A DNA stretch of 64,000 bases from Nitrospinaceae bacterium (GCA_965223665.1 OZ245011.1:1664001-1728000), one strand, 5' to 3'; positions 1 through 55,055 are shown, counted from the stretch's first letter. Notes: generated by a model not told the origin, from the letters alone. Numbers and translations: made by a program.

Positions 1-3000
1 GTCACCTCACGGAACACATGATCTCCGGAACTGCCGTTATATATATTCAAAGAAATGCTGGCAGAATCTATCGTTGCTCCGCTCGGTATCGAAGAAATGT
101 CCCAGGCGAGTACAGTTTTCAGATCGGTACCGGAACCTTCATCGGATTCTAAATTCACTTCGGTCCCATAGTTGGTGGTGGGGCTTGCTTCTTTCAGCAA
201 AGCGTCCCGTGTACCGTTGTAACTGCTATCCGGCTCAACACCTTCCTGAAACTCTATTGTCGTTTGTGTTCCCCCGCCACCGCCACCGGTGCCGCCATCG
301 AAGGTGTAGACCACATCACCGACACCTAAAGCTTTTTGCGTGCTGTAATCTTTTTGCACCAGGCGATTGAGCGCATCGTACTGGAAGTGGATTACCTGAC
401 CCTTGGCATCGGTCTGTTTGACGATGTTACCGACGTTGTCGTACTCGTAAGACCATACCCCCATGTCCGGATCGTCCATACCGATTTTTCGCGACAGCGT
501 ATTGTAAGTCAGTATCGATTCGTTGCCTTTGTCGTCAGTGGTCTTGAGCAGCTTGCCCTGAACATCGTATTCGTAAGTGGTTTCGGAATAGACGTTGGTG
601 GTACTGTTCGGATCACAAGAACTGTATGTTCCTGAGAACTCCTGGACGAGGAGTGGTTTGCCGAAGACGTTACGCACTTGCCTAGTTTTATGGCCGTTCG
701 CATCGATGGTGGCCGAGGTCCAGTCGTCATAACAATTGAGAATGAAGCTACCGTCGGGATTGGTCACTTTGGTTTTACGTCCTGCGAGATCATATTCAAT
801 CACCACCCATTTTTTGACACCACCGATGTTAAAAAACGGTAGACTGGTTTTCCACACATTTCCGCGCAGATCATAAACGGTTTCGGTGACTATTTCTTTA
901 TTGTCAGGACCGGTGCTTTTCGTTAAATACTTACGGCCCAATCCATCGAAATACACCTGCGAGGTTTGGCTCAGCGGACCATCGGTTTTCACCTGTTGTG
1001 AACTGATATTGCCGAAGTTGAGATAAGACGTGGTTGTGACGATGTCTTCCGGATCAGTAACTTTAATCACGCGACCCAGCGCATCATACTCTGTCGATAC
1101 CTTCGCACCATTGGGGTCAGTCGCCTCTTTGATCTGCCCATAAAGCCCGTTGGTCATGGACTCGCCCTCAACCCCGTAGTACTTGGTATCAACTTTATGC
1201 CCTAGAGCGTTGGTGCTGGAGATTTCGAACACTTCTTCATCATCGTACTCCATGGTCGAGGTGTTGCCGTTGGCATCGCGGGTACAAATCGGATTGCCCG
1301 CAGCATTGTACGCCAGACGCGTTTCCGGAGAGGTGCCACCGTCGAGCCAGTTCACTGAACGAGTGAGCAAACCTTTTGTAGGCAATTGATTGGTCGAAGC
1401 GGTACCACAACTGCTGGTGCCGTCGTAATACAGATCGGCATGGCTCACTTGGGTACGGCCGGTTCCAATGCCTTCATACGTGGTTTTGGATGTAGGGAAA
1501 CTGAGCAGTCGTTTAGTTAGGTTGTAATCGAACGTTTGCACTACCGTGCGATCATCGAGTGGAGTGTTGGTATCACCGTATTGTTCCTCTTCGATCACAT
1601 TGCCGTAGGCATCGTAAAAATATTTGGTTAAGGTTGTAACATTTCCGCCATGGCCGTCGTAGACCTTCACCTCCACCCATTGTGGTGGCGTGTACCAGGG
1701 TTCCTGGCCGTCGGCATCGGGAGTGTATTGCGTTTTAGTGATCGTCCAGAATGTTCCCGCAGTATCCCTGATTTCCTGGCGGTAAACCGAGCCTTTGGTG
1801 TAACCAATGGAATCGCTGGGATCGTTAGCTCCTACCGCCGTATCGTTCCCCTGATGGAAATACGAATGGTTGACGGTGCGTACACCGTTGGGTCCAGCGG
1901 GACCGGTGACTTTTGCGTGATGAAAACCACGAAACTCTTTGTCCACCAAATGAAAATACCCACCGTCGTATTCGTAATCGGTGCTGGATACATTGCCCCT
2001 GCCATCGTCGGTGGTGACTTTCGTCACCACCTGCGTCACAAACGGTAACAGCGTATTCGAAAAATCAGTGGAGGGAGAGTATTCTATTGTCGAGCTTCCG
2101 CCAAGGCCATTTTCAACCTTAGTTAGGAGGAAGGGTTTAGTATTTTTGTTCAACACACAACGCGATTCCCATCCATCAATGTCATTTGTAAGAACTATGC
2201 ATATATCCAAAAGTCCATCGCCATTAAAGTCTCCCTGGACTCGAGTCCAGGTGCCTGATCCACCATAATTTGCCGTATTATCATGCGCATTGAGAACCAT
2301 CGTTCCGAACGTGGTATCCCCATTATTCAGAACACAACGTGATTCCCAACCCCCATTAGAAGCAAGACCTGTCAACATGATACAAAAATCGGTGAGGCCA
2401 TCACCATTGTAATCCGCAGGAAGTCGTGTCCAGTATTCGGGTCCACCATAATTCACCGTACCATCATGAGTGTTAAGGATCATGGTTCCGAACGTGCCAT
2501 CACCCTTATTCATTACACAACGTGATTCCCAACCTCCATTTTGCGTGTTACCTGAATGCATAATACAAAAATCTGTGAGGCCATCGCCGTTGTAATCTGC
2601 GGGAATTCTTGTCCAGTAGGGAACTCCTCCGTAGTTTACATTTGCATTGTCATGCATCTGATTAATTACTGAACCAAAAGTTCCATCACCATCCCCCATT
2701 ACACAACTGGTTTGCCAACTGGTTGGAGAAGTTCCTGTACCTACCATGCACAGGTCAATTTTGCCATCATTGTTAAAATCGGAAAAATCTCGTGACCAGG
2801 TATTGACATCTCCATAGTTCGCAGGGTCTTGCACTTCATTTATTATCGGGCCAAAAGTTCCATCTCCATGGCCTTCCACACAACTGGTTTGCCAACTGGT
2901 TGGATAAGTGCCTGTGGCTACCATACAAAGATCAATGTCTCCATCATCATTGAAGTCAATAAAATGTCGTGTCCATGTACCCGGCCCGCCATAATTAATC

Positions 3001-18075: not shown

Positions 18076-19209
18076 ATGACCTGGTTAGCAGCGATATTAA
18101 TATTCGGACTTTTTTTAGCCTGGGCGAACGGCGCCAATGATAATTTCAAGGGAGTCGCCACCTTATATGGAAGTAAAACGGCGACTTATAAAACCGCGTT
18201 GATCTGGACCACTGCCGCCACCCTCCTCGGTTCCTTGACCGCACTTTTTTTTGCACAAGAACTCATTATCGTGTTCAAAGGGAAGGGGCTTGTGCCGGAT
18301 AAGGTGATGGGGTTTAAGGAATTTCCTGTGGCGGTCGGGTTCGGAGCCGCGGTGACAGTCATGCTGGCCACGCGATTGGGCCTTCCGGTTTCTACCACGC
18401 ACGCGCTCATCGGGGCGCTGGCAGGTGCGGGGTGGATGGCTTCCTCCAGCGGCATCAACACCGACAAGTTATTAGAGAAATTTTTTCTGCCGCTCATCGG
18501 CGGTCCGTTCATTTCATTTTTGTTGGTCTTGCTGCTGTATCCGATTTTTAAAAAATTACGAAAACACTTTGGCGCAGAACCTAGCACCTGTCTCTGCGTC
18601 GGCGAAAAAGTTGTCGCCACTCAACCGGGAACTCTCGCTACAGTCGCCGAGTTTACCGACGCATCGCCCTTACCGGAAGTCACACTCTCCGATGAAGCTT
18701 ACTGCCGAACCTCTTACTCGGGCAACGTAATGGGAATTTCTCTGGGAAAATTGTTAGACGTGATGCATTACTTAAGCGCAGGCCTGGTTTCCTTTGCACG
18801 AGGTTTAAACGACACACCTAAAATCGCCGCACTGCTGTTACTGGGTTCGCGGTTCTCACTGGAACTGTCGATCTTTGTGGTAGGAATTTTTATGGCAGTG
18901 GGCGGATGGATCCATTCCAAGAACATTGCGGAGACGATGGGCAAAAAGGTTACGGAAATGAATCCCGGCCAGGCCTTTTGTGCCAACCTGGTGACCGGCA
19001 TCATGGTGTTCGGTGCCTCACGAATCGGCGTTCCCGTTTCAACCACTCACGTTTCCTGCGGATCGATCTTTGGCATTGGCGCCGCCACCAAACAGGCGCG
19101 TTGGAAAATGATCAGCCAGATCCTCGTGGCCTGGATCACCACCCTCCCATTGGGAATCGCCCTCGGCATGCTCTCCATGACCTTCCTCAATTCATATTTC
19201 TTTAATTAA
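18076..19209 (+). CDS. PiT-family inorganic phosphate/anion transporter
   Basis: GANDNF, GLPVSTTH, ARGLNDTPK and GVPVSTTH signature motifs; many TM segments. Confidence 0.88.
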   Translation: MTWLAAILIFGLFLAWANGANDNFKGVATLYGSKTATYKTALIWTTAATLLGSLTALFFAQELIIVFKGKGLVPDKVMGFKEFPVAVGFGAAVTVMLATRLGLPVSTTHALIGALAGAGWMASSSGINTDKLLEKFFLPLIGGPFISFLLVLLLYPIFKKLRKHFGAEPSTCLCVGEKVVATQPGTLATVAEFTDASPLPEVTLSDEAYCRTSYSGNVMGISLGKLLDVMHYLSAGLVSFARGLNDTPKIAALLLLGSRFSLELSIFVVGIFMAVGGWIHSKNIAETMGKKVTEMNPGQAFCANLVTGIMVFGASRIGVPVSTTHVSCGSIFGIGAATKQARWKMISQILVAWITTLPLGIALGMLSMTFLNSYFFN

Positions 19210-19256
19210 GGAAAAATCCCCCCAGCCCCCTTCATAATAAAGGGGGAGCACATGGG
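19208..19256 (-). repeat. Short form of the palindromic element, between convergent genes
   Basis: AAAATCCCCCCAGCCCCCTT...AAGGGGGAGCACATGGG; reverse-complement match to 30975-31020. Confidence 0.75.
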
Positions 19257-19328
19257 ATCCCTTTTAATATTTTTTTGTGTTTTGTTGAAACTTAAAGGAT
19301 ATGAAATTTTTTCTCTGGAAAATTCTTA

Positions 19329-21338
19329 TCAAAGGTCCAAAAGATTGTCGGTGCTTTTTTCGTGGCTGAGAACGTATTGATGAGAATCGTACAACTTTTT
19401 ATAAATGGTGGAGAAAGGAGGGTATTTGTTTATCTCTTCAAGAAATTCTTTCCAGAGTTTTAGTTTATCTAAAAATTTGGTTAGAGATACATGTCTATCG
19501 TAGATCTCTTTATTTCCAAATTCAGGAATGAGAGAAATAAATTCTTTGGAAATTTCAGGATTATTTTTAAAGTCATATTTTTCGTAAGCAACGAATATTG
19601 CTAATCCCATGATTCGACTATGCTGGTCAAAATAATGAAACATCCCCCAATTTTTTTTAGCCGGTCCGACACTCATACTACCAAATCTAACATTTTGATC
19701 TTCCCCAGATAAATATAGAGTATGCCCAGAAGGAAGCTTCTCTAAGAAAAAGGATTTAGTAATTTTTTTATTGAGCAGGCTTTTGGTGACCTTATCTACG
19801 TTTAAAAATTTTTTCAGTGACGGCACTTCCAGAAACTTTTTGAATCGGTAAGGATCCACCTCTTCCAGAAACTTCAGCGTTTGCAACCAGCGGCCAAACA
19901 GTTTCTCGTTGTTTTCGATCTGTTCATAAAATTTTTCCGACGTGCTTTCCGGCACTTCGCTGATAAATTTTGCCGAATGATATTCCTGAATGCTTTTATG
20001 AATAAAGTTAATTTCGTTTCCTTCCTGCACCAGCAAACAGGTTATGGAAACCAGGTCCTCCAAGTAGTCTTCGGCAGGCGTTTCCTTTAAGTGGCACGCA
20101 TCCAGAGATTTGCTCACAATTTTTAAACAGTCGACTTCGTTGAATCGGGTCAGGTTTTCCTTTTGAGTGGTAAAACAAAAATTCCGAAATACCGTTTCGA
20201 ATTCCAGATCACCCAGTTCACTTTTCCTTTCGCGGACGTAACCGGGCTTCGTCTGGTCATGCCGTTTGAGCAACACCCAGAACAGATCGCGATACCAGTC
20301 CGACAACTGATCAGGAATTTCGTTGCCTCCCTTATAGACAATGATTAGCAGAGTTACCAACAACGGCGTGGTCAACACGTTTTGAATGTTTTTGTTGACA
20401 TCGATCGCCTTTAAAAACATTGCCGCCTTTTCCGGGTCCGGCACTAACTTTTTAATGAGGTTTTTGTTGTCGTCCGGAGTGAGTTTTACCAGCGGGAAAA
20501 TGGCAAAGTGAGGAGACTTTTGTATTTCCCCATTGGGTCGACTGGAAATAACGGTGCGAATGTTTTTATACTTTTGCGCAATTTTTTCCAGGTAACGAAT
20601 CGTTTGCATGATGTATTTGGAATTCAATTCATCGAACCCGTCGAGGATCAAAGCGATTCGACCCGCGCTGGCAAATGCGTCGAACAACTCACTGTCGAAC
20701 TTCAATCCCAGGATGGAAAGCGAGGAGAAAATCAAATCCTGCAATGAAGTTTTGTTATCGATTTGCCGCAGTTCGACAAAAATCGGAATGTATTCGCCGC
20801 GTCTCAATTCCTGAATACATAAATATTTTAAAAGAATCGATTTTCCCTGTCCGGCGGTTCCCTGAATAATAATATTCCGCAATGATTGAAAATCATCAAT
20901 GGAATTGACTTCCATTTCCAAACCGCTTTCACTTTTTCTAATCAACAAATCCTTTTCTTCATCCTGGTTCGCAAATATATCATACGCGGAGGTTTCTACA
21001 CGAGTGGGATAGTAGAAGTCGGACACTTTCACTTCTTTGTCCGTCTGCCAAATAGTTTTTACTTTTTCGACGTTGGCAATTTGCTCGACCAGGTTGGGGA
21101 TTTTCAGTTTGCTTTTGCTGAATTTGTATTTCTTTTTTTCAACAGAGGTGAGCCGTTCCAGAACCTCTTCAACTAAATCCCGGATTCCCTGCTCCAACTC
21201 AGGTTTTTGTTTGGTCAGGGAGATATTGTAGTTTTTAACAATCTTGTCGCGGCCAACTTTATCCCCGCCAACTTTATCCCCTTTGACGCTATCTCCCTCA
21301 AGTGAAGTCATTTTTTTCTTTTGTTTTTCGTTGTTCAT
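19329..21338 (-). CDS. NACHT-family (STAND) NTPase with N-terminal GDKVG repeats
   Basis: Walker A GTAGQGKS, Walker B LILDGFDEL, ISSRP, TPLLVTL, FIHKSIQEY. Confidence 0.9.
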   Translation of the reverse strand: MNNEKQKKKMTSLEGDSVKGDKVGGDKVGRDKIVKNYNISLTKQKPELEQGIRDLVEEVLERLTSVEKKKYKFSKSKLKIPNLVEQIANVEKVKTIWQTDKEVKVSDFYYPTRVETSAYDIFANQDEEKDLLIRKSESGLEMEVNSIDDFQSLRNIIIQGTAGQGKSILLKYLCIQELRRGEYIPIFVELRQIDNKTSLQDLIFSSLSILGLKFDSELFDAFASAGRIALILDGFDELNSKYIMQTIRYLEKIAQKYKNIRTVISSRPNGEIQKSPHFAIFPLVKLTPDDNKNLIKKLVPDPEKAAMFLKAIDVNKNIQNVLTTPLLVTLLIIVYKGGNEIPDQLSDWYRDLFWVLLKRHDQTKPGYVRERKSELGDLEFETVFRNFCFTTQKENLTRFNEVDCLKIVSKSLDACHLKETPAEDYLEDLVSITCLLVQEGNEINFIHKSIQEYHSAKFISEVPESTSEKFYEQIENNEKLFGRWLQTLKFLEEVDPYRFKKFLEVPSLKKFLNVDKVTKSLLNKKITKSFFLEKLPSGHTLYLSGEDQNVRFGSMSVGPAKKNWGMFHYFDQHSRIMGLAIFVAYEKYDFKNNPEISKEFISLIPEFGNKEIYDRHVSLTKFLDKLKLWKEFLEEINKYPPFSTIYKKLYDSHQYVLSHEKSTDNLLDL

Positions 21339-23063
21339 TTATTTAGATTCAGTATTGGGATCGTCTTTGAGTCGACGGGTGAAGGCAATGTTATTGAGAA
21401 CAACAGTCACGTTCGGGTGTGCTTTTCCTAAAGTCATTTGAAAAATAGGCAACGCTTTTGCAAAATAATCGATGGCTTTGTCGTAATCCCCTTTTTCTCT
21501 CCACGCGGCACCGAGGTTATTGTACCGGGTCCCCACATAATGATGATGCGGACCCCAGTTTTTGAGATCACTGGCCAGGGCCTTCTCAAAAAATTTAATC
21601 GCTTTGTCAAAATCTCCTTGCTCTTGCCAAGCGGATCCTACATTATTCCATCCGTTGGCAACATCGGGATGACCTTCTCCAAGCGTTAAAATATTTCTGG
21701 CAAGAGCTTTTTCAAAGTAGTGGATGGCTTTTTCGTTTTCACTTTTATTGTGCCAGGCCATTCCCAAACTGTTCCAATGATAGGCTAGATTCGGATGGTC
21801 TTCACCTAAAGTTTCGAGATCGCTGGCCAGGGCTTTTTCAAAATATTCGATGGCTTTATCGTACTCACCCATCGTATTCCACGCCAATCCCAGGTTGTTC
21901 CAATCTCGAGCGACACAAGGATGAACCTTTCCAAAAACTTTGAGATCACTCGCCAGTGCCTTTTCGAAATACTCAATGGCCTGGCCCGTCTCACCCAAAT
22001 TCTGCCAAGCCAATCCCAAATTATTCCACACAGTCGCAACACGGGGATGGTCTTTACCATACACCTCCTCATAAATGGGCAAACATTTTTTAAAATAGGC
22101 TATGGCTCTATCAAAATACCCTCTCGCCTTCCAAACCGTACCCACATTATGGCAACGGTGAGCCACATTCGGATGATTGGGGCCATAAGTTTTCAGGTCA
22201 CTTTGCAGAGCCTTTTCATAATATCCAATCGCTTTATCGAGTTCACCCTTATCCTGCCAAACATTTCCCAAATTACTCCATTGAATAGCCACCTCCGGAT
22301 GGTCCTGGTCATAATTTTTTAAATTAATGTCCAACGCTTTTTCTAAATACGCAAGTGCCTGATCGTATTCTCCCCTTTCTCTGCAAATCATTCCCAGATT
22401 ATTCAAATTGATAGCCACACTTGAATCTTCCTTCCCGTGATTTTGTATATTCGCATCCAATGCTTTTTCGTAGTACTCCATGGCCTTATCGTAGCGGCCA
22501 AGGGTTTTCAAAAGAATTCCAGTTTCGTTTAGATACAAACTATTTTCCGGAACCAGTTGCGTTGCACGTTCCATATATTCGAGAGCTTTGAGGTAATCGA
22601 TTTTATTTTCCGCTAGTTTTCCGAGTTGGTAGGCGGCTTCGGCGGCTTGTTCAATGGTATCTTTACTTTGATCTAAAGCTTTATGGAATAATTCTTCAGC
22701 TTTTTCAGTTTTTCCCTTTTTGAGCTGAGCTTCAGCTTCAGCTAACTGATCCTTAGTAATGGAAGGCTGGCGCTCTAAGGCTTCGGTGGCCTGGGCTAAA
22801 AGCTGTTGAGTGTTTTCTAAATCTTGTTGGACATTTTGTAGACGTGCTTCTGCATGATCCACTATTTTTTCTAAGAGAGCAATTTTTTCCTGATCCCGTT
22901 GCTGGCCTTTTTCATGCTCCCGTTTCAACTGCTCACGAACTTTGTGAACTTCCTTTTCCAATTCCGCCTTATGCCCGGCCAGCGGGATATTGTAATTATG
23001 GACGACTTTATCGCGTCCTACTTTATCGCCACCGACTTTGTCACCTTGAACATTATCGCCCAT
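21339..23063 (-). CDS. TPR protein with N-terminal GDKVG repeats and coiled coil
   Basis: Array of 42-aa units HPxVAxxWNNLGxAW...AIxYFEKAL; stop codon abuts the NACHT start. Confidence 0.92.
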   Translation of the reverse strand: MGDNVQGDKVGGDKVGRDKVVHNYNIPLAGHKAELEKEVHKVREQLKREHEKGQQRDQEKIALLEKIVDHAEARLQNVQQDLENTQQLLAQATEALERQPSITKDQLAEAEAQLKKGKTEKAEELFHKALDQSKDTIEQAAEAAYQLGKLAENKIDYLKALEYMERATQLVPENSLYLNETGILLKTLGRYDKAMEYYEKALDANIQNHGKEDSSVAINLNNLGMICRERGEYDQALAYLEKALDINLKNYDQDHPEVAIQWSNLGNVWQDKGELDKAIGYYEKALQSDLKTYGPNHPNVAHRCHNVGTVWKARGYFDRAIAYFKKCLPIYEEVYGKDHPRVATVWNNLGLAWQNLGETGQAIEYFEKALASDLKVFGKVHPCVARDWNNLGLAWNTMGEYDKAIEYFEKALASDLETLGEDHPNLAYHWNSLGMAWHNKSENEKAIHYFEKALARNILTLGEGHPDVANGWNNVGSAWQEQGDFDKAIKFFEKALASDLKNWGPHHHYVGTRYNNLGAAWREKGDYDKAIDYFAKALPIFQMTLGKAHPNVTVVLNNIAFTRRLKDDPNTESK

Positions 23064-23353
23064 CTATCCAATTCCTGCTAAATTGAAAAATGGAAAAGTT
23101 CTTATGTATTCAAACCTACTCCTTCTGCCAAAACGAATCAAGGAAAATATTGGTGAGGGGAACGGAACCGGCCAGTCTAAAAATGGGAACTCGGTTTAAA
23201 CAGGGAGTCATAGGGATTTTCCCGGTTTGTCTGTGGAAAAAAATAACGAGTTGGTTCTATATATAGGGCGTTTTCGCGGAGATTTCTATTTTACAATTTC
23301 CCCTGAAATGGTTTATTTTGTCCCCAGGTTCAACATCTAATGAGGGGTCATTT

Positions 23354-23818
23354 ATGCAAACTATACTTCCGTTTTTAAAAATTTTTGTTGCACCATCCAT
23401 CATTTTAATCGGATTGTGTTTCACCATCCGCCATTTTAAATTTGTCCGCGCCATTTCTTATCTCGAACGATTGAACAGTACCGAGATGATGAAAGTTCGT
23501 GCAGAAGTCGACGGCTGGTTAAGTTCCAAAGCAAGTGACGAAGAAAAACTGAACGCGATATTTTCGAATCCCGCACTCCATTTGCATTTAATCCTGCTCA
23601 CCAACCTGTTCACAGAGTTGGGAATCGCTTATAAATTTGGAGTGATCAACAAAAAGCTGACGTTTGAAGCGTGGGACCCGGTCCTTCCCCGATACTGGAA
23701 CCAACTGCAATTTTATTTTCAGGACAGCCGCATCAAAGGAAAACTAGGAAAACATTTCGGAAACATGGCCAAAGACATGATGGAACAATCCGACCATCCG
23801 GAAGAAAGATATATTTAG
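23354..23818 (+). CDS. Hypothetical membrane-anchored protein (DUF4760-like)
   Basis: GAGGGG SD before ATG 23354; N-terminal TM; NLFTELGIAYKFGVI pattern. Confidence 0.6.
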   Translation: MQTILPFLKIFVAPSIILIGLCFTIRHFKFVRAISYLERLNSTEMMKVRAEVDGWLSSKASDEEKLNAIFSNPALHLHLILLTNLFTELGIAYKFGVINKKLTFEAWDPVLPRYWNQLQFYFQDSRIKGKLGKHFGNMAKDMMEQSDHPEERYI

Positions 23819-23931: not shown

Positions 23932-24225
23932 ATGAAACCGGAAAATCCATCCACCAAATCGGCCCGTTTTGAAGCAAGAATCACGGAAGAACAAAAGGCC
24001 ATTTTCCAAAGGGCCGCGGCATTGGGGGGCCACCGGTCTCTCACGGAATTTGTCATTGAAAGCGCTCAGGAAAAAGCCAATGCCCTGATACAAGAGCATG
24101 ATATCCTTCGTTTATCGGCGAAAGACAAAAAATTGTTCGTCGAAGCACTTTTAAATCCTCCGGCCCCCAATGCCAGGTTGAAGCAAGCCGCAAAACGCTA
24201 TAAAAAACTGGCGCCGCGTGGGTGA
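23932..24225 (+). CDS. DUF1778 (TacA/AtaR-like) RHH antitoxin
   Basis: KSARFEARIT...IFQRAAAL...SLTEFVIESA...FVEALLNPPAPNARL. Confidence 0.92.
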   Translation: MKPENPSTKSARFEARITEEQKAIFQRAAALGGHRSLTEFVIESAQEKANALIQEHDILRLSAKDKKLFVEALLNPPAPNARLKQAAKRYKKLAPRG

Positions 24226-24721
24226 GTTCCTTCCTCTAACCGAAGCATTACGCGCCAAACATAAACGGGGACACTTTACCTGCGGCGAACCTGCGCTGGA
24301 TATCTATCTAAAACAATTCGCCAGGCAGGATCAAAAAAGACGTGTCGCTGCGGTGTTTGTGTTGGCCGATGCAGCGAATCGTATTCAGGGTTATTACACA
24401 CTTTCCGCAGCCCATATATCTTCCGAGATTTTGCCGGAATCTCTATCTAAAAAACTTCCGAAACATTCATTTCAACCGGCCACGTTGTTGGGTCGACTGG
24501 CGGTGGATCAAGCTTTTCAAAACCAGGGGATGGGTGAAACGTTACTCATGGATGCCTTGCATAGAAGTTTTTTACTTTCGGACCAAATCGGTTCTATCGC
24601 GGTGATTGTAGATGCTTTGAATAAAAAAGCGGCTAAATTCTATACTCCATACGGGTTCATTCCCCTGACCGGCAGCAAACGATTGTTCCTTCCCATACAA
24701 ACTATCGCTAAACTATTTTAA
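24218..24721 (+). CDS. GNAT-family toxin (TacT/AtaT-like)
   Basis: FTCGEPALDIYL, GYYTLSA, LLGRLAVD..FQNQGMG, VDALN..A..FY..YGF; overlaps the antitoxin gene. Confidence 0.92.
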   Translation: MGEFLPLTEALRAKHKRGHFTCGEPALDIYLKQFARQDQKRRVAAVFVLADAANRIQGYYTLSAAHISSEILPESLSKKLPKHSFQPATLLGRLAVDQAFQNQGMGETLLMDALHRSFLLSDQIGSIAVIVDALNKKAAKFYTPYGFIPLTGSKRLFLPIQTIAKLF

Positions 24722-24752: not shown

Positions 24753-25151
24753 CTAAAGACAAAATATTAAATGGAAGGGAACATTCTCTTTTCGCCATTC
24801 ATCTGAGGCAAAAAGCCAGGATGAAATAAGTTTGCCTGCGGTAAGCGTTGCATTTTTCCAAAGTACTCCGGAATTTGATAAAAGCAACACATAGCCTTTG
24901 GCAGGCCACCACTCCAAATCCCCCAAACATTCATCCAAAGCATCCCAATTGTTTCCAAAGTAATCCGGAAATTTTAAGGCTTGAGCTAAAACAGCAAATA
25001 GATCGGAGTCATTCGAAATAGAAGCGGCATTAGCTTCGATTAAAGTGAGAGAAGAGTTTTGAACTTTCTCTCGCAAAGCGTTCCATTCGTCTTGAGAAAT
25101 AAAATGAACACACTCGGCGGATGGGTTTTCGAGAATTTTGAAATGAATCAT
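24753..25151 (-). CDS. Barstar-family protein
   Basis: LKFPDYFGNNWDALDECLGDLEW barstar signature. Confidence 0.9.
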   Translation of the reverse strand: MIHFKILENPSAECVHFISQDEWNALREKVQNSSLTLIEANAASISNDSDLFAVLAQALKFPDYFGNNWDALDECLGDLEWWPAKGYVLLLSNSGVLWKNATLTAGKLISSWLFASDEWRKENVPFHLIFCL

Positions 25152-49476: not shown

Positions 49477-51096
49477 TTACAAATACTCTGCCAGTATGGT
49501 TTCAGTATCGTAAGGAGTGATTCCTTCTTCGATCGAAAACACAGTTTCGGCGTTTTCTTTCTCGGAAACTATCTGCCCGCGTCCCAAAGCGTGCAACTCG
49601 AACAAGTCGTACAACTTCGGCGCCTGCAAACCGGTCATGGCTTTCCCGATGAGAACAATTCCTTTCTCGTTCCCTTCCACATTGTTGTACCAATACGGAT
49701 TTCGAGTTAAAGCCAAATCGGTCCAAATGAACTGACGTTCTTTCAGATCCAGAATGACAGGAATACAAATACTGGTATTCGACGCAATATCGATTTTTTC
49801 CGATACCGTACTCGGCTCGAAAATCTCTCCGGAGTCCGGACTCTTCCGCATCATCCAACCTGCATAACACTCCGGCAGGTTGCAGTAAGGTTGTCCGGAA
49901 AAGGAGTACAAAGACATCACCACATACCGTGATTGTTGACTCAACGATTTGTTGATATCTATGTCAATAAACTCACAGGCTCCAAAAGGCGCCGAGGTAA
50001 TATCACCGCTATGAAACACACCCATCCGTTTGGATTTCAGATTGGTGTAAGAAACATGGTTTAGATATTTCCAGTTCTCATCATAAAACACCGCAGACAA
50101 GTCAATATCCACACGTCCGGTAGACACACCGTTCACAATCCCTTCTTTCCACCAAAGAAAAAACCGAATGGTGTTTTTTCCGGGCATCGGGAAACGAGAA
50201 CCTCTTGCCAGGTTGCGTAAACTTTTACTCGCCGACCGTTGTGCCAACGGCACGGTATAACTGTCCAACCGGGGATTGATGTAAACCTTACCCAACTCCG
50301 ACAGTTTGCCAAACCGATCAATGAGGGCCTGACGGATCAACTCCACCAAAGCATCGCACACTTCTCGACTCAACTCAGGCAACGCGTTAGGTATTCCATA
50401 CGCTTTAGCGACTTCTCCCTTGGGAAAAAACACCCGCAAATCACGCGGCTCCAATCGACCTTTAAAGTGTGCCAGGTTTTGTAACAAAACGTTAGTCGAC
50501 ACCTGACCGACCACCTTAGCGAAAGGTTCCAACACCGTGGACGGATCTTCCGCAGACCGCAACAGAAAATCCAACCGACGCGCAAACTCTCCCGGACGCG
50601 TTTGCAATTGTTCCACTGCCTTGGAAAATTCTTTGCGTTCCAAAGCCGCTTCCAAAATGTTATTGAAGGTTGCAAACGGTTTATCGTTACGGATCACATC
50701 AAGCGCTTCCGCCACTTTGGGATACACGTGTTGGTATTCCGTAGGATGCAACTTCTCACCCAACCGGATCCACCGCTTTTTATATCGCAGCATGTCCTCC
50801 ACAATGGCAGGCCGTTGTTCCAACAGGTTCAACAGAAACCGGCGTTCTGATCGACGGAAATTTTTGAACTTGGTGTTCGCCGCCAGGCTCACATCCCCAC
50901 CGGACAAACCCACCGCCAACCGCAATACATCGGTGGCCGTTTTAAAATGATCGGCTACCAGTTCCTGCGCGTTGTCCACATGCACCAACAGCAACCCACA
51001 CACATAAGCCAGGTTTTCCTTATTGGTAAACATTTCCGGCAAAAATCGATCGATCTCCCCGGAATAAGAACGGACAAACCAAGCCAGGTCGCTTTT
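49477..51096 (-). pseudogene. TerD-domain fusion protein, 3' part (helical domain plus C-terminal TerD-like domain)
   Basis: FKTATDVLR, RPGEFARRLD; TerD-like VDIDLSAVF, HSGDITSAP.GACEFIDID; out of frame with the 5' part. Confidence 0.75.
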
Positions 51097-51457
51097 TCTT
51101 GATAAACTCCGGCATGAACCGAACCCCAATCACATCACCTAAGTAATGAATCAGGTTTATATCAAACAATAACTCTTTCCGCATTTCCTGCACCTGCTTG
51201 GGAAAGTTGGGATACATGGGTCGAAACTTCACATGCGCACCCACCATTTCCTTCAAGTAGGAAGCCAGGTTTTCATAGAACGACTTCAATGCCTTTTCAT
51301 CCAAGGTACTCAACCGTTCAGCCAGTGTATCGGAAATTGCGTACCCGAGCGGTTTGATATTTTGATTCAACGCCACCATGTATTTAGGGTCCAGCTGACT
51401 GGTTCCCGCGGCGACTATAACTTTGTTTTTTCGTCTTAAAAATATTTTGTTCTTCAT
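51020..51457 (-). pseudogene. TerD-domain fusion protein, 5' part
   Basis: MKNKIFLRRKNKV...LGY...VGAHVKFRPMYPNFP recalled as the N-terminus of the same family; leaves frame near 51085-51096. Confidence 0.7.
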
Positions 51458-51962: not shown

Positions 51963-52997
51963 CTATTTTCTGTCAATGGAGACTGTCCAAATTGTATCGC
52001 CTGTTTTTTGGAAATCGATGTGACAGTCGATGAACTTTTGGATCACATCGCGATTGGTCAGTGTATGCGGGGTCGGTTCCATAGTCGTGAACTTCCCCTT
52101 CCCTGCCAACGCCATCGGCAACAACAACTGATCCGCCAAATGCTCGCCCACTGCCGCGTTGCTGTTCAGATAAACTTGAGTGGCATCGCACACATTCCTC
52201 GCCACGGCTTCCGCTCGGACACCGCGCACTCCAAATCCCGCGACCACTTCCGTCACATTTTCGAAAACCAGTTTATTGAACACCACGTTGCCTGCACCGA
52301 CTGAGTCGTGAGTCTCACGTAATAACAACACCTCTTCCGGCCAGCCCATTTTTTTACCAACCACTTTCAACTCGCGTTTGGGAATGCTGACTTCCAAACC
52401 CGAGAACAACGCCTCAGCATACGCTTTTTTTTGTTTGCCGCGTGTCATCAAGTCCACCGGCTTTAACCGTTTCGCCGGGGTGATGGTAAACACCACCTTG
52501 CCCCCGCCGGCCGGATAAAACCCGTAACGGTGGATTTCTGCCTCCACACGCACGCCCATTGTCTTGAGGACCGGCAAATAACACTCTGCTAAAAAATCGA
52601 ACGGTGGCGAGGCCATGTTATGAGTTCCCCCTTCCAACGTAATGGTGGAAGGGTGCTCCGCCAACATCAACGCCGGCAATAAGGTTTGCGTCACCAAAGT
52701 GGTGCTGCCCGCCGTGCCAATGGCGAACTGATACCTGCCGCCCTGAACGGTTCCGGGAAGAAACTTTAACTCACCGGAACCCATTTCGGCCCCTGTGATT
52801 TTGGCTCCACTGATGGCCGCTGCCGCTTTGACCGATGTCAAATGCTGTCGTAACAATCCCGGCTTTTTGCGTCCCGCACGAATGTTGATCATGTGGAAGG
52901 GCTTTCCGGTGATCATCGCCAACGAGAGGGAGGTGCGCAGAATTTGTCCGCCTCCTTCTCCCTCAGACCCGTCAATTTTTATAATTTCTGTTTTCAT
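51963..52997 (-). CDS. rtcA: RNA 3'-terminal phosphate cyclase
   Basis: IDGSEGEGGGQILRTSL, NIRAGRKKPGLLRQHL, GGTHN, GFYPAGGG, VGEHLADQL, HTLTN. Confidence 0.97.
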   Translation of the reverse strand: MKTEIIKIDGSEGEGGGQILRTSLSLAMITGKPFHMINIRAGRKKPGLLRQHLTSVKAAAAISGAKITGAEMGSGELKFLPGTVQGGRYQFAIGTAGSTTLVTQTLLPALMLAEHPSTITLEGGTHNMASPPFDFLAECYLPVLKTMGVRVEAEIHRYGFYPAGGGKVVFTITPAKRLKPVDLMTRGKQKKAYAEALFSGLEVSIPKRELKVVGKKMGWPEEVLLLRETHDSVGAGNVVFNKLVFENVTEVVAGFGVRGVRAEAVARNVCDATQVYLNSNAAVGEHLADQLLLPMALAGKGKFTTMEPTPHTLTNRDVIQKFIDCHIDFQKTGDTIWTVSIDRK

Positions 52998-53049
52998 TCC
53001 TTGCTACCGTTAAATTTTGTTCTTTAAATCATTTCTCTATTTGGTTCTT

Positions 53050-53196
53050 AAAACCCTGGAGGTCAATCACTCCAGCCCGCAGCGTAACGTTAAACCCAGA
53101 ATGAACTTTCATTAGGTTGAGGTGTTTCCTCTCCTCAACAGACTTTTGAATATCCTTTTTGCCTCCAATCGCTAGATTGGAAAAGAGGGAGCACAT
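53050..53196 (-). repeat. Long form of the palindromic element
   Basis: Reverse-complement match to 17867-18014 and 44446-44580 (TCCAATCGCTAGATTGGA hairpin). Confidence 0.7.
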
Positions 53197-53235
53197 TTAC
53201 TTCTCCTTCAATATTTTCTTCTAAAGATGACATCT

Positions 53236-53382
53236 TGTATATAGAAGCAACTCAATTTCCTGAGAGCCTCCGAGGAGATGGAGTCCCAAAACCTCCCTGA
53301 AAAGTTGAATTGCTTCCCCAAACTCCTCTATACAAAAGGATGCAGGATAACTCTAAGAAAAAACTTTGAGCACCCTGCATCC
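53236..53382 (-). ncRNA. Two long hairpins between rtcB and rtcA, candidate structured RNA(s)
   Basis: GGAUGCAGG/CCUGCAUCC stem (53338-53382) and GGAAGCAAUUCAA/UUGAGUUGCUUCU stem (53243-53317); G-U pairs favour the minus strand. Confidence 0.4.
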
Positions 53383-53427
53383 CCATTGATCATCAAACAT
53401 CAATTTATCTAGTGGCGGCCACGACGT

Positions 53428-53480
53428 AAAATCCCTGAAGGTGAATCACCCTATCCCTCTTTAGAAAAGAGGGAATGCAT
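53428..53480 (-). repeat. Short palindromic element
   Basis: AAAATCCC..AGGTGAATCACCC..CCCTCTTTAGAAAAGAGGG. Confidence 0.75.
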
Positions 53481-53634
53481 CGTTCTTCTTTTCAAAAATT
53501 TTTTTCTAAAGACAAACTCTACTTTAGAATGAGATCTGTGGATTCAGCGTCCGCACCCACTCATCGAATATTAATGTCGCCCCTCACGGCCAGTGAGTCA
53601 TCGCATATAAATGTTCCCTCCGGACGGGGTCCGG

Positions 53635-54861
53635 TTAACCTTTGACGCAGACGACTTGTTTTAGAGTGTAGACCACTTCGACCAAGTCTTTTTGCGCTTC
53701 CATGACTTTATCGATGTCTTTGTAAGCGGACGGAGTTTCATCCACCACGCCGGAATCCTTCCGGCACTCGACGCCTTCCGTGGCTTTGACATGTTCATCG
53801 ACAGAGACTTTTTTCTTCGCTTCGGTACGCGACATCACCCGACCTGCTCCGTGGGAACAGCTGTGAAAGCTATCCTCGTTGCCAAGGCCGCGCACGATAA
53901 ACGACCGCGCGCCCATGCTTCCGGGAATGATTCCCATATCGCCCTGCCGCGCCCGCACCGCACCTTTGCGTGTGACAAAGACGTTCTCACCGAAGTGGTG
54001 TTCTTTGGTCACATAGTTGTGGTGACAGTTGATCGCTTCCACTTTCGCATCGAAAGGTTTATCAATCACGTGACGGGCCGCTTCCACCAAATGGGTCATC
54101 ATGATTTCGCGATTCCTTCGCGCAAAGTCCTGTGCCCATTCAACGGCAAACACATAATCTTCGAAATGTTCAGACCCTTCGGGAAAATACGACAGGTCCT
54201 TATTCGGCAGATTGATCATCCACCGTTCCATATCTTTTTTCGCCAGTTCAATGTACCGGGTACCGATCGCGTTACCGATCCCCCGGGAACCGGAATGCAG
54301 CATGAACCACACTCGATCGTTCTCATCGAGACACACTTCTACGAAGTGGTTTCCAGTTCCCAACGTCCCTAAATGATTCAGGTTGTTGCTGTTCTTTAAT
54401 CGCGGCATTCGCTCAGTAATCCGTTTGAATCCGGGTTCCAATTCTTTCCACGATTCCAAAGACCGCTCGGGTGGGTTTCCCCACGCCCCTTTATCTCGTC
54501 CACGTCGATGGCTGGATCTTCCATGCGGAATCGCTTCTTCAATGACGCACCGCAACTCGAACAAGTTATCCGGCAAATCTGCCGCTTCCAACGAAGTTCG
54601 CACGGCCATCATTCCACAGCCGATGTCCACCCCGACCGCCGCGGGAATGATGGCTCCTTTCGTAGGAACCACACTCCCGATCGTTGATCCTTTTCCCACA
54701 TGCACATCCGGCATCACCGCCAACCATTTATGGATGAACGGCAGTTGGGCAGTTTGTTTCAATTGCTCTTTCGCTTTATCGTCAACCGGCACCCCGCGTG
54801 TCCACATTTTAACCGGCGCGCCGTTTTCTTTTTGTATCACTTCATAGTTTTGAAAGTTCAT
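53635..54861 (-). CDS. rtcB: RNA ligase RtcB
   Basis: MPDVHVGKG, VGVDIGCG, LGTLGTGNHF, LHSGSRG, CHHNY, IPGSMG, SHGAGR, DETPSAYK; start placed at MNFQ (AAGGA SD) because the ATG at 54885 lies almost at the predicted transcription start. Confidence 0.97.
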   Translation of the reverse strand: MNFQNYEVIQKENGAPVKMWTRGVPVDDKAKEQLKQTAQLPFIHKWLAVMPDVHVGKGSTIGSVVPTKGAIIPAAVGVDIGCGMMAVRTSLEAADLPDNLFELRCVIEEAIPHGRSSHRRGRDKGAWGNPPERSLESWKELEPGFKRITERMPRLKNSNNLNHLGTLGTGNHFVEVCLDENDRVWFMLHSGSRGIGNAIGTRYIELAKKDMERWMINLPNKDLSYFPEGSEHFEDYVFAVEWAQDFARRNREIMMTHLVEAARHVIDKPFDAKVEAINCHHNYVTKEHHFGENVFVTRKGAVRARQGDMGIIPGSMGARSFIVRGLGNEDSFHSCSHGAGRVMSRTEAKKKVSVDEHVKATEGVECRKDSGVVDETPSAYKDIDKVMEAQKDLVEVVYTLKQVVCVKG

Positions 54862-54898
54862 CGTATCGTTCCTTTCGTTTCGCATTCACCCTAAGTAT

Positions 54899-54914
54899 AG
54901 CAACGCGCGTGCCA
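54899..54914 (-). promoter_or_regulatory. Sigma-54 -24/-12 promoter of rtcBA
   Basis: TGGCAC-GCGCG-TTGCT matches the consensus; IHF-like TAACTCATTGTTT at 54942-54954. Confidence 0.92.
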
Positions 54915-55055
54915 GTATTTTCAGAGCCCTTAAAATTTTTATAACTCATTGTTTTTAAAAGGATAAACTTTTTAGTTCCAAAAAAAGCCTTCTCCTCAAG
55001 ACTTCTTATTTTATAATATATTCTAGTCTTTTATAAATTAAGCTAGAGATTAATC

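Follow-up and report, generated by a model that had tools for sequence, protein, structure and literature searches.

A pentad-repeat segment common to the N-termini of an abutting TPR protein and NACHT NTPase in a Nitrospinaceae bacterium: a possible coupling tag

A TPR protein and a NACHT NTPase encoded by abutting genes of a Nitrospinaceae bacterium begin with a common segment, a short array of five-residue repeats that we call the tag. The reading we favor, and to which we give about an even chance, is that the tag is a lineage-specific means of homotypic coupling, similar in use to an effector-associated domain (EAD) or an amyloid signaling motif, which an autonomous NACHT protein has captured. 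The two genes lie in a window of 64,000 nucleotides (GCA_965223665.1 OZ245011.1:1664001-1728000), the whole stretch of DNA analyzed, and all positions count from its first letter.

Results

Both genes are on the minus strand. The TPR protein gene (21339..23063) is an ORF for 574 aa comprising the N-terminal tag, a helical linker and a TPR_12 array. The NACHT NTPase gene (19329..21338) is an ORF for 669 aa with a Pfam NACHT domain. The TAA stop codon of the TPR gene is followed directly by the ATG of the NACHT gene, and the two are probably co-transcribed. The NACHT gene sits in a variable island. In a sister species the syntenic site holds another gene together with what is left of a truncated NACHT gene. 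By eye, neither protein sequence has a signal peptide.

The tag spans aa 1-46 of the TPR protein (22926..23063, minus strand), delimited by BLASTP to the NACHT N-terminus, and aa 10-59 of the NACHT protein (21162..21311, minus strand), where it is an insertion in the family alignment and matches the tag profile at 2.0e-21. Residues 2-46 of the former align without gaps to residues 15-59 of the latter with 27 of 45 identical (BLASTP E 7e-14). The alignment and the pentads bear out a preliminary description of this DNA, in which a five-residue-periodic motif was said to be common to the two abutting proteins and N-terminal on both. In the TPR protein, G-D-K-V-x pentads (aa 2-21) are followed by N-Y-N-I-x-L and then the start of a helix. 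The overall consensus is G-D-K-(V/I)-x, with three to five pentads per tag. The repeat core is 40-45% charged (8-9 of 20 residues) and Lys fills the third position of 45 of 67 pentads, with Lys or Arg somewhere in almost every one; Gly, Val and Ile are enriched. As a control for chance, a loose form of the pattern was found in 17 of the 8233 ORFs of at least 80 aa in this genome and in only 2 once each ORF was shuffled. We found no published description of a GDKVx tag in the literature searched.

At the DNA level, the shared stretch is identical at 87 of 135 positions and was also recovered in a repeat search as a 110-nt direct repeat of 70% identity. The 48 differences include 29 at third codon positions and only five at second positions, and 17 of the 27 identical residues use different codons. 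By NG86, dS between the copies is saturated while dN is 0.26 for the whole segment and drops to 0.15 when only its first 35 codons are taken. Since synonymous sites are saturated, conservation of the segment is at the protein level, as had been proposed, and the substitution pattern indicates that the tag is under purifying selection.

Of all copies in the genome, the two tags also match one another best, with a score of 143 against next-best scores of 86 and 129, and the TPR protein is the best match to the tag profile (1.0e-25). In the AF2 models, aa 1-21 of the TPR protein and aa 1-38 of the NACHT protein have a pLDDT below 50; in the former a helix begins at aa 28. The predicted disorder of both tags fits a coupling tag and equally fits a flexible tail.

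The TPR protein as a whole is modeled with a mean pLDDT of 87. A helical linker (aa 28-131, 22671..22982, minus strand) holds the model helices H28-51, H58-76, H78-97, H104-114 and H120-131, is shared with TPR paralogues and is conserved in 10 paralogues and orthologues. The TPR array (aa 137-567, 21363..22655, minus strand) matches Pfam TPR_12, TPR_10 and TPR_1 with a 42-residue period and is modeled as helical hairpins. TPR_12 alone matches the protein at 5.1e-85 in eight stretches. In the DNA the array is a 126-nt direct repeat family of seven copies with 60-74% identity to the reference. Among the 25 of its 37 Pfam families listed, and in NCBIfam, the protein has only TPR families, with no execution or effector domain, and no amyloid-motif Pfam family matched it at E <=0.1 in that listing. 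It is possible that the TPR protein acts as a sensor. In the sister species, its orthologue is present with no NACHT gene beside it.

The NACHT NTPase core (aa 155-298, 20445..20876, minus strand) corresponds to the Pfam envelope of PF05729 (E 1.8e-11; its 44.6 bits exceed the curated cut-off of 26.7) and has a Walker A G-x-x-G-x-G-K-S and a Walker B D-G-F-D-E. The Walker residues G163, G165, K166, S167, D233, D236 and E237 do not vary across the 34 aligned family members, the window protein among them. A Foldseek search with the AF2 model (mean pLDDT 81) gave NLRC4 as the top match (8fw2_A, E 1.5e-12, TMq 0.42), with NOD2 and NLRP3 also matched. The protein is therefore predicted to have an NLR-like fold, with an NTPase and a helical and winged-helix module. 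The N-terminal helical region typical of the family (aa 45-110, 21009..21206, minus strand) is conserved in the family alignment, includes the V-K-T-I-W-Q block and is modeled with helices H45-61, H65-70 and H80-89. At the syntenic site in the sister species lies a 96-aa remnant of this region, without the tag.

The C-terminal region (aa 505-669, 19332..19826, minus strand) is a candidate sensor part. Alignment columns past about aa 505 are barely conserved in the 34 members, and this variable region of about 165 aa is modeled as mixed alpha/beta with pLDDT 51-94. Of the seven Pfam families listed for the protein, none lies C-terminal of aa 298 and none is an amyloid-motif family at E <=0.1; beyond the NACHT module there is no repeat domain. 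The earlier statement that the NACHT protein has no C-terminal repeat sensor holds as far as repeats go, but members of the family do end in a variable region of their own. No EAD Pfam family matched either of the two proteins at E <=0.1 among the families listed. PADLOC had no model matching the NACHT protein, and its NCBIfam match to EruA was far under the cut-off (24.8 bits against 1000).

The NACHT family is widespread, patchily distributed and single-gene, with members of about 575-600 aa (median 600) and no fused repeats. The tag is found in none of 119 NACHT homologues and is an insertion peculiar to the window protein among the 34 aligned. At 80 family loci in other genomes, no TPR_12-like neighbor was detected (BLASTP E <=1e-5, a search that other TPR types could escape), no terminus was shared with a neighbor, and there was no conserved neighbor, with at most four of the 80 sharing any. 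These loci indicate that the family is autonomous.

The preliminary description had suggested a possible split NLR, a stand-alone TPR sensor coupled in trans to a NACHT module, with an amyloid-like motif on both. Spelled out, this reading has a NACHT protein with no sensor of its own, a TPR array that senses for it and a prion-like motif that passes activation on by templating. The adjacent, collinear and abutting genes, the terminal motif of about 25-45 aa in common, the single NLR-type NTPase and the modeled disorder of the motif in the monomer all speak for it. Such gene pairs with a common terminal motif are the genomic signature used to find bacterial amyloid signaling sequences (BASS), according to the Dyrka 2020 preprint (10.1101/2020.01.06.895854). 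Yet an autonomous NACHT family with its own variable C-terminal region and no TPR_12-like neighbor at any of 80 loci, together with a TPR orthologue that stands without NACHT in the sister species, argues against the NACHT protein being the sensor-less half of such a system. We judge the split NLR unlikely.

Could the tag on the NACHT protein instead be a neutral relic, the first 45 or so codons of a TPR gene copy fused to the NACHT gene by rearrangement and without function? The presence of the tag in only one of 120 family members and the variable island, with its truncated remnant and different gene in the sister species, are what such an accident might leave. However, 27 of 45 residues are kept despite saturated dS, with only five of 48 differences at second positions, and a functionless extension would by then have decayed or been lost. 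The region near aa 45 of the window protein, where other family members usually start, has no Met, and initiation at another codon would not give back the ancestral N-terminus. We regard the relic as highly improbable.

Other proteins in this genome carry the tag. The profile matched at 20 places, and 15 of these are in six clusters of adjacent genes. Most carriers are TPR paralogues, and tandem duplication explains why these are adjacent. Carriers have the tag at the N-terminus and include TPR_12 paralogues, the NACHT protein, an iSTAND protein (PF19995, 2.7e-5), a caspase-like protease (Peptidase_C14, 5.8e-19) and small proteins. The tag of the caspase-like protein is closest to that of the adjacent 703-aa TPR protein (86 against 69), a closeness that is not reciprocal. 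In the sister species (G001), the best tag match of a 184-aa protein after its orthologue is the adjacent 552-aa TPR protein. For the protein p180, the adjacent TPR_2196052 is outside its top three tag matches. By eye, a signal-peptide-like segment precedes the tag in both the caspase-like protein and its TPR partner. Judged in this way, partners appear to share a compartment, with NACHT and its TPR cytoplasmic-looking and the caspase-like protein and its TPR exported-looking. A MoxR-vWA ternary system was unconfirmed for the iSTAND neighborhood: the 1381-aa neighbor gave no vWA match within its first 900 aa.

Related repeats are found outside this phylum. A search of 1.84 billion representatives returned 97 matches to the repeat. 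Nine of 10 long proteins picked from these have EAD1-NB-ARC-TPR, nSTAND1, CHAT, caspase, PNP_UDP_1, DUF4062 or TPR domains, and in these nine the repeats adjoin a terminus or a domain boundary. Repeats lie between EAD1 and NB-ARC in P0148, and between esterase and DUF4062 in L123. Cyanobacteria had matches in eight of 301 genomes, and 10 of the 14 matches fell into five pairs, 0.3-2.4 kb apart. No repeat was found in 251 genomes from each of two other phyla, used as negative controls. The cyanobacterial form is GD(K/N)(V/I), carried terminally by ROCO, NLR and small proteins whose genes are paired as neighbors. The motif is common to the termini in seven of eight adjacent cyanobacterial pairs examined, with pairwise E-values that are optimistic given low-complexity sequence and no composition correction, and the likeness includes residues ahead of the first pentad. 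A caspase beside an EAD10-NACHT shared nothing with it (E 1.1). Pairs comprise LRR-Roc-COR proteins and small proteins encoded downstream, an NB-ARC-TPR and a small protein encoded upstream, and a STAND-WD40 and an esterase-DUF4062. Roc-COR proteins end in the motif, which takes up their final 15-25 residues. The NB-ARC-TPR and its small neighbor both have the tag at the N-terminus, and thus the arrangement in the window has precedent.

The distribution beyond the window also bears on the split NLR. NB-ARC-TPR proteins usually sense through a TPR_12 array, and the cyanobacterial NB-ARC-TPR with a like repeat at its N-terminus is consistent with a TPR sensor. The placement of repeats in other lineages (N-terminal of STAND NTPases, C-terminal of caspase, CHAT or Roc-COR) is usual for amyloid motifs. 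Against the reading are a tag that is not confined to the pair, the charged, Lys-rich core where BASS are described as Lys-depleted, the tag following signal-peptide-like segments in exported-looking proteins, the lack of any Pfam amyloid-motif family at E <=0.1 among the families listed for the NACHT (7 of 7) and TPR (25 of 37) proteins, and a partner without a cell-death execution domain.

The repeats might also be no more than a flexible Lys-rich linker or tail, for example a multi-site substrate, for processing or release, of the basic-residue-specific caspase- or trypsin-like peptidases of these systems, or a localization or solubility tail, with neighbors alike by descent only. Bacterial orthocaspases cleave after basic residues, and effectors are processed by peptidases in such systems (in part from Kaur 2020). 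The repeats are modeled as disordered, have Lys or Arg in nearly all pentads, sit between domains (P0148, L123) and beside caspase or CHAT domains, and are carried by both cytoplasmic-looking and exported-looking proteins. A tail of this kind does not account for a likeness between neighbors that reaches the flanks (N-Y-N-I-x-L...E-L-E here and the pre-pentad residues in the cyanobacterial pairs), nor for the mutually best matching of the NACHT and TPR tags. Cleavage at the C-terminal motif of Roc-COR proteins would free nothing. As the NACHT and TPR proteins are not paralogues, common descent of whole genes cannot explain their common tag. We find the linker or tail quite unlikely.

Discussion

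The coupling tag thus remains our preferred reading. That the motif couples products of adjacent genes, as the preliminary description proposed, is backed by the mutual best matches, the purifying selection and the pairs in the sister species and cyanobacteria. In this genus, the tag would form the mature N-terminus of proteins of the conflict-system type (TPR_12 proteins, NACHT, iSTAND, the caspase-like protease and small proteins), as a short G-D-K-(V/I)-x array, disordered while the monomer is unbound, that leads into the opening turns of a helix. An autonomous NLR-like NACHT gene may have picked up a copy of its upstream neighbor's tag. In the simplest form, the two tags would associate by strand-to-strand stacking of the pentads and packing of the helices that follow, tethering the TPR protein to the NACHT protein and coupling NACHT oligomerization to TPR-mediated binding. 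The motif is demonstrated, as are its distribution, the selection on it and how close neighboring copies are to one another; the physical tag-tag association, and which partner may sense and which may execute, we infer. Counting against a coupling tag, it is not specific to the pair (about 20 carriers), and the TPR orthologue works without a NACHT neighbor in the sister species. If the tag was captured in this way, an autonomous mobile NACHT gene can join the existing network of its host with about 45 codons from a neighbor.

A broader proposal, which we hold to be improbable, is that G-D-(K/N)-(V/I)-x arrays are undescribed cross-phylum templating tags, in which a lone rung is disordered, stacked beta-structure forms only with the rung of a partner, and NLR-, ROCO- and caspase-type hubs are wired to next-door partners. 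If true, one tag family here would link at least 10 stand-alone TPR arrays to a NACHT protein, an iSTAND protein and a caspase-like protease. The result would be a distributed NLR network, cytoplasmic as well as periplasmic, in which a few hubs serve a large set of exchangeable sensors or scaffolds. The cross-phylum pairs represent several independent systems (Roc-COR with a small protein, NB-ARC-TPR with a small protein, and STAND-WD40 with esterase-DUF4062).

Like BASS and fungal HET-s/NWD2-type systems, the pair has a short terminal motif on adjacent, collinear, near-touching genes, one of which encodes an NLR-type NTPase. Like BASS and HET-s, the tag is Gly-rich with alternating hydrophobic residues and is modeled as unstructured in the monomer. 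BASS1-11 are described in the Dyrka et al. 2020 preprint (10.1101/2020.01.06.895854) and the Bab/Agp preprint (10.1101/2024.11.07.622273), and in the former their composition is given as enriched in Gln, Asn, Gly, Val and Ile and depleted in Lys, Pro and Leu. Unlike BASS so described, the tag is strictly five-residue-periodic, 40-45% charged and Lys-rich. It is N-terminal on both proteins rather than at the effector C-terminus and NLR N-terminus, is also found after signal-peptide-like segments, and has as partner a TPR array and not a Bell-like, TIR, CHAT, hydrolase or other execution domain. The tag is set apart from BASS here by described composition and not by motif logos, and may be one of the cyanobacterial BASS7-10.

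For the EADs (EAD1-11) of NTP-dependent conflict systems, Kaur, Burroughs, Iyer and Aravind 2020 (PMC7159879) give three features: a copy on a core NTPase with others often next door, adjacent copies that are the most alike, and many lineage-specific copies. All three are seen in the tag. Like EADs, it has copies on NTPases (NACHT and iSTAND), with others on TPR, caspase-like and small proteins, and a proposed role in homotypic coupling. Adjacent copies are closest for NACHT and TPR (143), the caspase-like protein and p703, and the 184-aa protein of G001, with one exception (p180 and TPR_2196052). EADs fold into small globular domains, either alpha or alpha+beta, whereas the tag is a pentad array of 20-25 residues plus a helix start and is modeled as disordered. 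A further difference is that TPR proteins, not enzymes, make up most of its partners here.

Similar to stand-alone bNACHT proteins (Kibby et al., preprint 10.1101/2022.07.19.500537), the NACHT protein is one of a widespread family encoded as single genes; its P-loop is intact and its modeled fold resembles NLRC4, NOD2 and NLRP3. It differs from them in matching no PADLOC model and in its tag, which no other family member examined has. Pentapeptide repeat proteins, with the Rfr-type right-handed quadrilateral beta-helix, have the consensus A-(D/N)-L-x-x. The tag resembles these in its tandem five-residue period with Asp or Asn at a fixed position, but its consensus is G-D-K-V/I-x, its three to five pentads would make about one turn at most and they are modeled as disordered. 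No pentapeptide Pfam family was among the listed matches of the window proteins.

Bacterial NLR-like systems couple receptors to partners through small globular adaptors (EADs and Death-like domains) or amyloid motifs (BASS). A highly charged, strictly five-residue-periodic tag that follows this genomic grammar would add a third way of coupling, and, because current detectors are trained on Lys-poor motifs, a Lys-rich tag would widen the sequence space for signaling-motif searches.

A conserved N-terminal segment in the adjacent TPR and NACHT proteins

The TPR gene of the window (21339-23063, minus strand) codes for a 574-aa protein in which eight stretches match TPR_12 (PF13424, 5.1e-85). There is no gap between it and the NACHT gene (19329-21338, minus strand); the TAA stop codon of the TPR ORF is directly followed by the NACHT ATG. 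The 669-aa NACHT protein matches PF05729 over aa 155-298 (1.8e-11), and both its Walker A and Walker B motifs are intact in the alignment. All ORF calls are our own and take the first start codon. A promoter and terminator scan of 18900-23600 found no terminator-like site between the two genes, and its promoter and terminator counts were not above those of shuffled sequence. The terminator-free junction is weakly suggestive of co-transcription. A search for RNA sequencing runs for this DNA listed none; the four runs listed are DNA runs, all from one sample and study.

The preliminary description held that the two proteins begin with a common segment conserved at the protein level, and both points were borne out. 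TPR residues 2-46 align without gaps to NACHT residues 15-59 with 27 of 45 identical (BLASTP, E 7e-14). Between the two segments dS is saturated while dN is 0.26 (NG86), and 17 of the 27 conserved residues are encoded by different codons. The underlying DNA is identical at 87 of 135 positions, with 29 of the 48 differences at third and five at second codon positions. The possibility that the 5' ends of the two genes had recently undergone gene conversion was rejected, since the DNA is only 64% identical and synonymous sites are saturated.

The segment, hereafter the tag, consists of three to five pentads, a short cap and then the opening turns of a helix. The cap reads N-Y-N-I-x-L in both proteins. 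Across 67 pentads from 16 copies, the consensus is G (53), D (63), K (45) and V or I (57), then G or any residue. In each of the window's two proteins the 20-residue repeat core has eight or nine charged residues, five glycines and five hydrophobic residues. AlphaFold2 modeled the whole NACHT and TPR proteins with a mean pLDDT of 81 and 87, respectively. The pentads are unstructured in both models, with pLDDT below 50 at NACHT residues 1-38 and TPR residues 1-21, and the TPR helix begins at residue 28. A complex prediction for the N-terminal segments of both proteins (60 and 61 residues, 16-row alignments), run without controls, scored 0.02 against a mark of 0.32, which counts neither for nor against association. 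A protein atlas search with TPR residues 1-48 as the query returned no usable match. The TPR repeats are 60-74% identical to one another at the DNA level and do not show the hyper-conservation that the consulted part of the Dyrka 2020 preprint (10.1101/2020.01.06.895854) describes for fast-diversifying NLR repeats.

The NACHT gene belongs to an autonomous family and gained the tag

The pair had been proposed to be a possible split NLR, with the NACHT protein as its sensor-less half. We found 129 relatives of the NACHT protein among 5.8 billion clusters. Of the 120 that were listed, 119 are other proteins, and the tag motif is absent from the first 150 residues of every one of them. These relatives have Walker A near residue 95, compared with residue 160 in the window's protein. 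Alignment of 34 family members shows the tag as an insertion that only the window's protein has, placed ahead of the conserved helical region at the family's N-terminus; the C-terminal ~165 residues are poorly conserved across the family. The solved structures nearest to the NACHT model are NLRC4, NOD2 and NLRP3 (best E 1.5e-12).

We then surveyed the loci of the best 80 of 178 confirmed NACHT relatives in other genomes, whose record titles name Proteobacteria, Planctomycetes, Verrucomicrobia, Chloroflexi, Cyanobacteria and other groups. At none of these 80 loci did a flanking ORF resemble the window's TPR array (BLASTP, E up to 1e-5) or a neighbor have a terminus in common with the NACHT protein. 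The most recurrent neighbor family is present at no more than four of the 80. With no recurrent or TPR-like neighbor at these 80 loci, the NACHT gene has the look of a mobile single-gene system rather than of half a split receptor, and the proposal is not supported.

The same-genus sister species (G001) encodes an orthologue of the window's TPR protein, with 39 of 49 N-terminal residues identical (dS 1.13 and dN 0.08 over 130 codons), at another genomic position and without a NACHT neighbor. At the site syntenic with the window, it retains an N-terminal NACHT remnant of 96 aa (L028, G001:C13:2343506-2346706, at 1426-1716, minus strand; 63% identity over aa 48-114). The remnant starts at the family's usual start and therefore lacks the tag, and next to it is an unrelated 381-aa gene without a Pfam match. 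In the window the gene order is PiT transporter, NACHT, TPR, DUF4760, TacA with its GNAT toxin-antitoxin partner, and Barstar. Among named relatives, those closest to the PiT transporter come from Oligoflexia and Bacteriovoracaceae MAGs (77-78%) and from Nitrospinota (62-65%). Given the tag-free remnant and the different gene at the syntenic site, the window locus is a variable island, and the tag on NACHT is a gain.

The toxin-antitoxin, Barstar-like and DUF4760 genes, together with several small lipoprotein-like ORFs, look like a variable conflict island. The TacA-like antitoxin (PF08681, 2e-26) and GNAT acetyltransferase genes (23932-24721, plus strand) form a TacT-like toxin-antitoxin pair, alongside a Barstar-like immunity protein (24753-25151, minus strand; 1.5e-21), with the NACHT/TPR pair directly adjoining. 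Elsewhere, the window encodes an RNA-repair cluster at 51963-56633, with an RtcA cyclase (3.2e-132), an RtcB-family ligase and the activator RtcR (7e-242). A 550-aa protein with a match to the MXAN_6230/SCO0854 RING-domain family is encoded at 49477-51129 on the minus strand (NF041916, 8.2e-127, under the curated cut-off of 600 bits).

Many proteins in the genome carry the tag

A tag profile built from 13 copies matched 20 places in the genome (E up to 0.01), and 15 of these fall in six clusters of adjacent genes. A cruder pattern matched 17 ORFs versus two after shuffling. Among 41 relatives the profile was restricted to the genome itself, G001 (10 matches) and one weak match; in a sample of the phylum it was present in two of 120 genomes.

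At least 10 TPR_12 proteins carry the tag and are built alike, the tag leading into a helical linker and then a TPR array. An iSTAND protein (PF19995, 2.7e-5; 25.1 bits against a cut-off of 24) and a caspase-like protein (Peptidase_C14, 5.8e-19) also carry it, as do a 180-aa protein and small secreted-looking proteins. Several carriers have a signal-peptide-like N-terminus, judged by eye, with the tag right behind. These include the caspase-like protein and the 703-aa TPR protein that its gene adjoins (L034, G000:C1:2057052-2060854), a hint that this kind of pairing also has an extracytoplasmic form.

The 385-aa iSTAND protein is encoded in a row (L033, G000:C1:1727436-1733799) with a 351-aa AAA ATPase and with a 1381-aa protein that has TPR_12 repeats at its end. 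This three-gene row is operon-like and resembles iSTAND ternary systems. Its assignment as a MoxR-vWA-iSTAND system was rejected; the AAA protein matched generic AAA families alone (bpMoxR 8.7e-4, under its cut-off), and a search of the first 900 aa of the 1381-aa protein found no vWA domain. In PADLOC the NACHT, iSTAND and neighboring small genes went unmatched, and the TPR protein was matched by a generic TPR model only.

Two small proteins (G000:C1:1895626-1896114 and 2119281-2119868) consist largely of longer G-N/G-D pentad-like arrays. Both have signal- or anchor-like N-termini, and in both cases a TPR gene lies immediately downstream. Such arrays may reveal the role of an extended version of the same repeat.

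Tags of neighboring genes also resemble each other, to varying degrees. Those of the window's NACHT and TPR proteins are mutual best matches in the genome (score 143), the next-best scores being 86 for NACHT and 129 for TPR. The NACHT tag is equally close to that of the G001 TPR orthologue (141). The tag of the caspase-like protein is closest to its TPR neighbor's (86 versus 69), though not reciprocally. Variant repeats are common to a 184-aa protein of G001 and the 552-aa TPR protein next to it; apart from its orthologue, the 184-aa protein has its best match in this neighbor. The tags of the 180-aa protein and the TPR protein encoded beside it are not mutually closest. Closeness among tandem TPR paralogues is trivial.

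Related repeats adjoin conflict-type domains in other lineages

Among 1.84 billion representatives the profile matched 97 proteins at E up to 1e-3, and the three at 1e-10 or below are all from this genus. Leaving out the NACHT protein itself, Pfam was run on the other 96. The domains found were nSTAND1, CHAT, Peptidase_C14 and TPR_12 (three each), EAD1, EAD11 and nSTAND6 (two each) and PNP_UDP_1 (one). HC2 was matched in six simple-repeat proteins, which we take to be noise. Nine of 10 long matches inspected singly carry such conflict-type domains. One has EAD1, the repeats, NB-ARC and TPR in that order. In two, nSTAND1 comes right after the repeats, and PNP_UDP_1 and DUF4062 lie downstream of them in one protein each. 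The repeats follow CHAT or a caspase in three and are N-terminal with TPR in one. Ten further short matches added TCAD2, COR-B and DUF4926.

Eight of 301 sampled cyanobacterial genomes have matches, compared with none of 251 in each of two control phyla. Ten of the 14 cyanobacterial matches are in five pairs, 0.3-2.4 kb apart; the loci were read with simple ORF calls of our own. Two LRR-Roc-COR proteins of 949 and 1031 aa (L139, 4191-7719, and L142, 1960-5974, from genomes G408 and G213) end in the motif, which makes up their final 15-25 residues. A small gene comes after each of theirs and codes for a protein with the motif near its N-terminus. One of these small partners has DUF4926, then the motif, then a helical region without a Pfam match. 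An NB-ARC-TPR protein and the 114-aa protein adjoining it both have the motif N-terminally. An esterase-like DUF4062 protein with internal repeats is paired with a STAND-WD40 protein with N-terminal ones (L123, 5088-9927, MAG G121); the locus continues with another DUF4062-like ORF and one resembling NB-ARC/TPR. A caspase with C-terminal repeats adjoins an EAD10-NACHT-NCH2 protein, and a pairwise comparison found nothing in common between these two. The motif is common to both members in seven of eight adjacent pairs, with E-values of 1e-11 to 8e-4 that are optimistic as composition correction was off. The profile search for neighboring pairs that the preliminary description had called for finds motif-bearing neighbor pairs in cyanobacteria too, and the 20 places in the genome show that the tag is not private to the window's pair.

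Comparison with known systems

The tags may physically associate and so couple proteins encoded by neighboring genes, with the TPR protein as a putative sensor, scaffold or executor. A motif-string literature search, and term look-ups in the consulted parts of Kaur 2020 and of papers on amyloid signalling motif detection, found no published description of such a repeat.

Effector-associated domains (EADs), as described in the consulted part of Kaur (PMC7159879), occur once on a core NTPase and again on additional proteins, often the products of an adjoining gene; copies from neighboring genes resemble each other most, and a genome holds many lineage-specific copies. All three features are found in the pattern of the tag, which is not a Pfam EAD. 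The genomic grammar that defined bacterial amyloid signalling sequences (BASS) is likewise seen for the tag, as far as the consulted parts of those studies describe it (10.1101/2020.01.06.895854; Bab/Agp, 10.1101/2024.11.07.622273). The tag departs from a typical BASS in being periodic, rich in lysine and highly charged, in its N-terminal position on both partners here and in its presence in exported-looking proteins as well. This distinction draws on the text descriptions of BASS in the parts consulted, and the tag may overlap a cyanobacterial BASS family. Since the tag shows the EAD features and the BASS grammar without being a Pfam EAD or a typical BASS, we interpret it as a homotypic coupling tag of a new kind.
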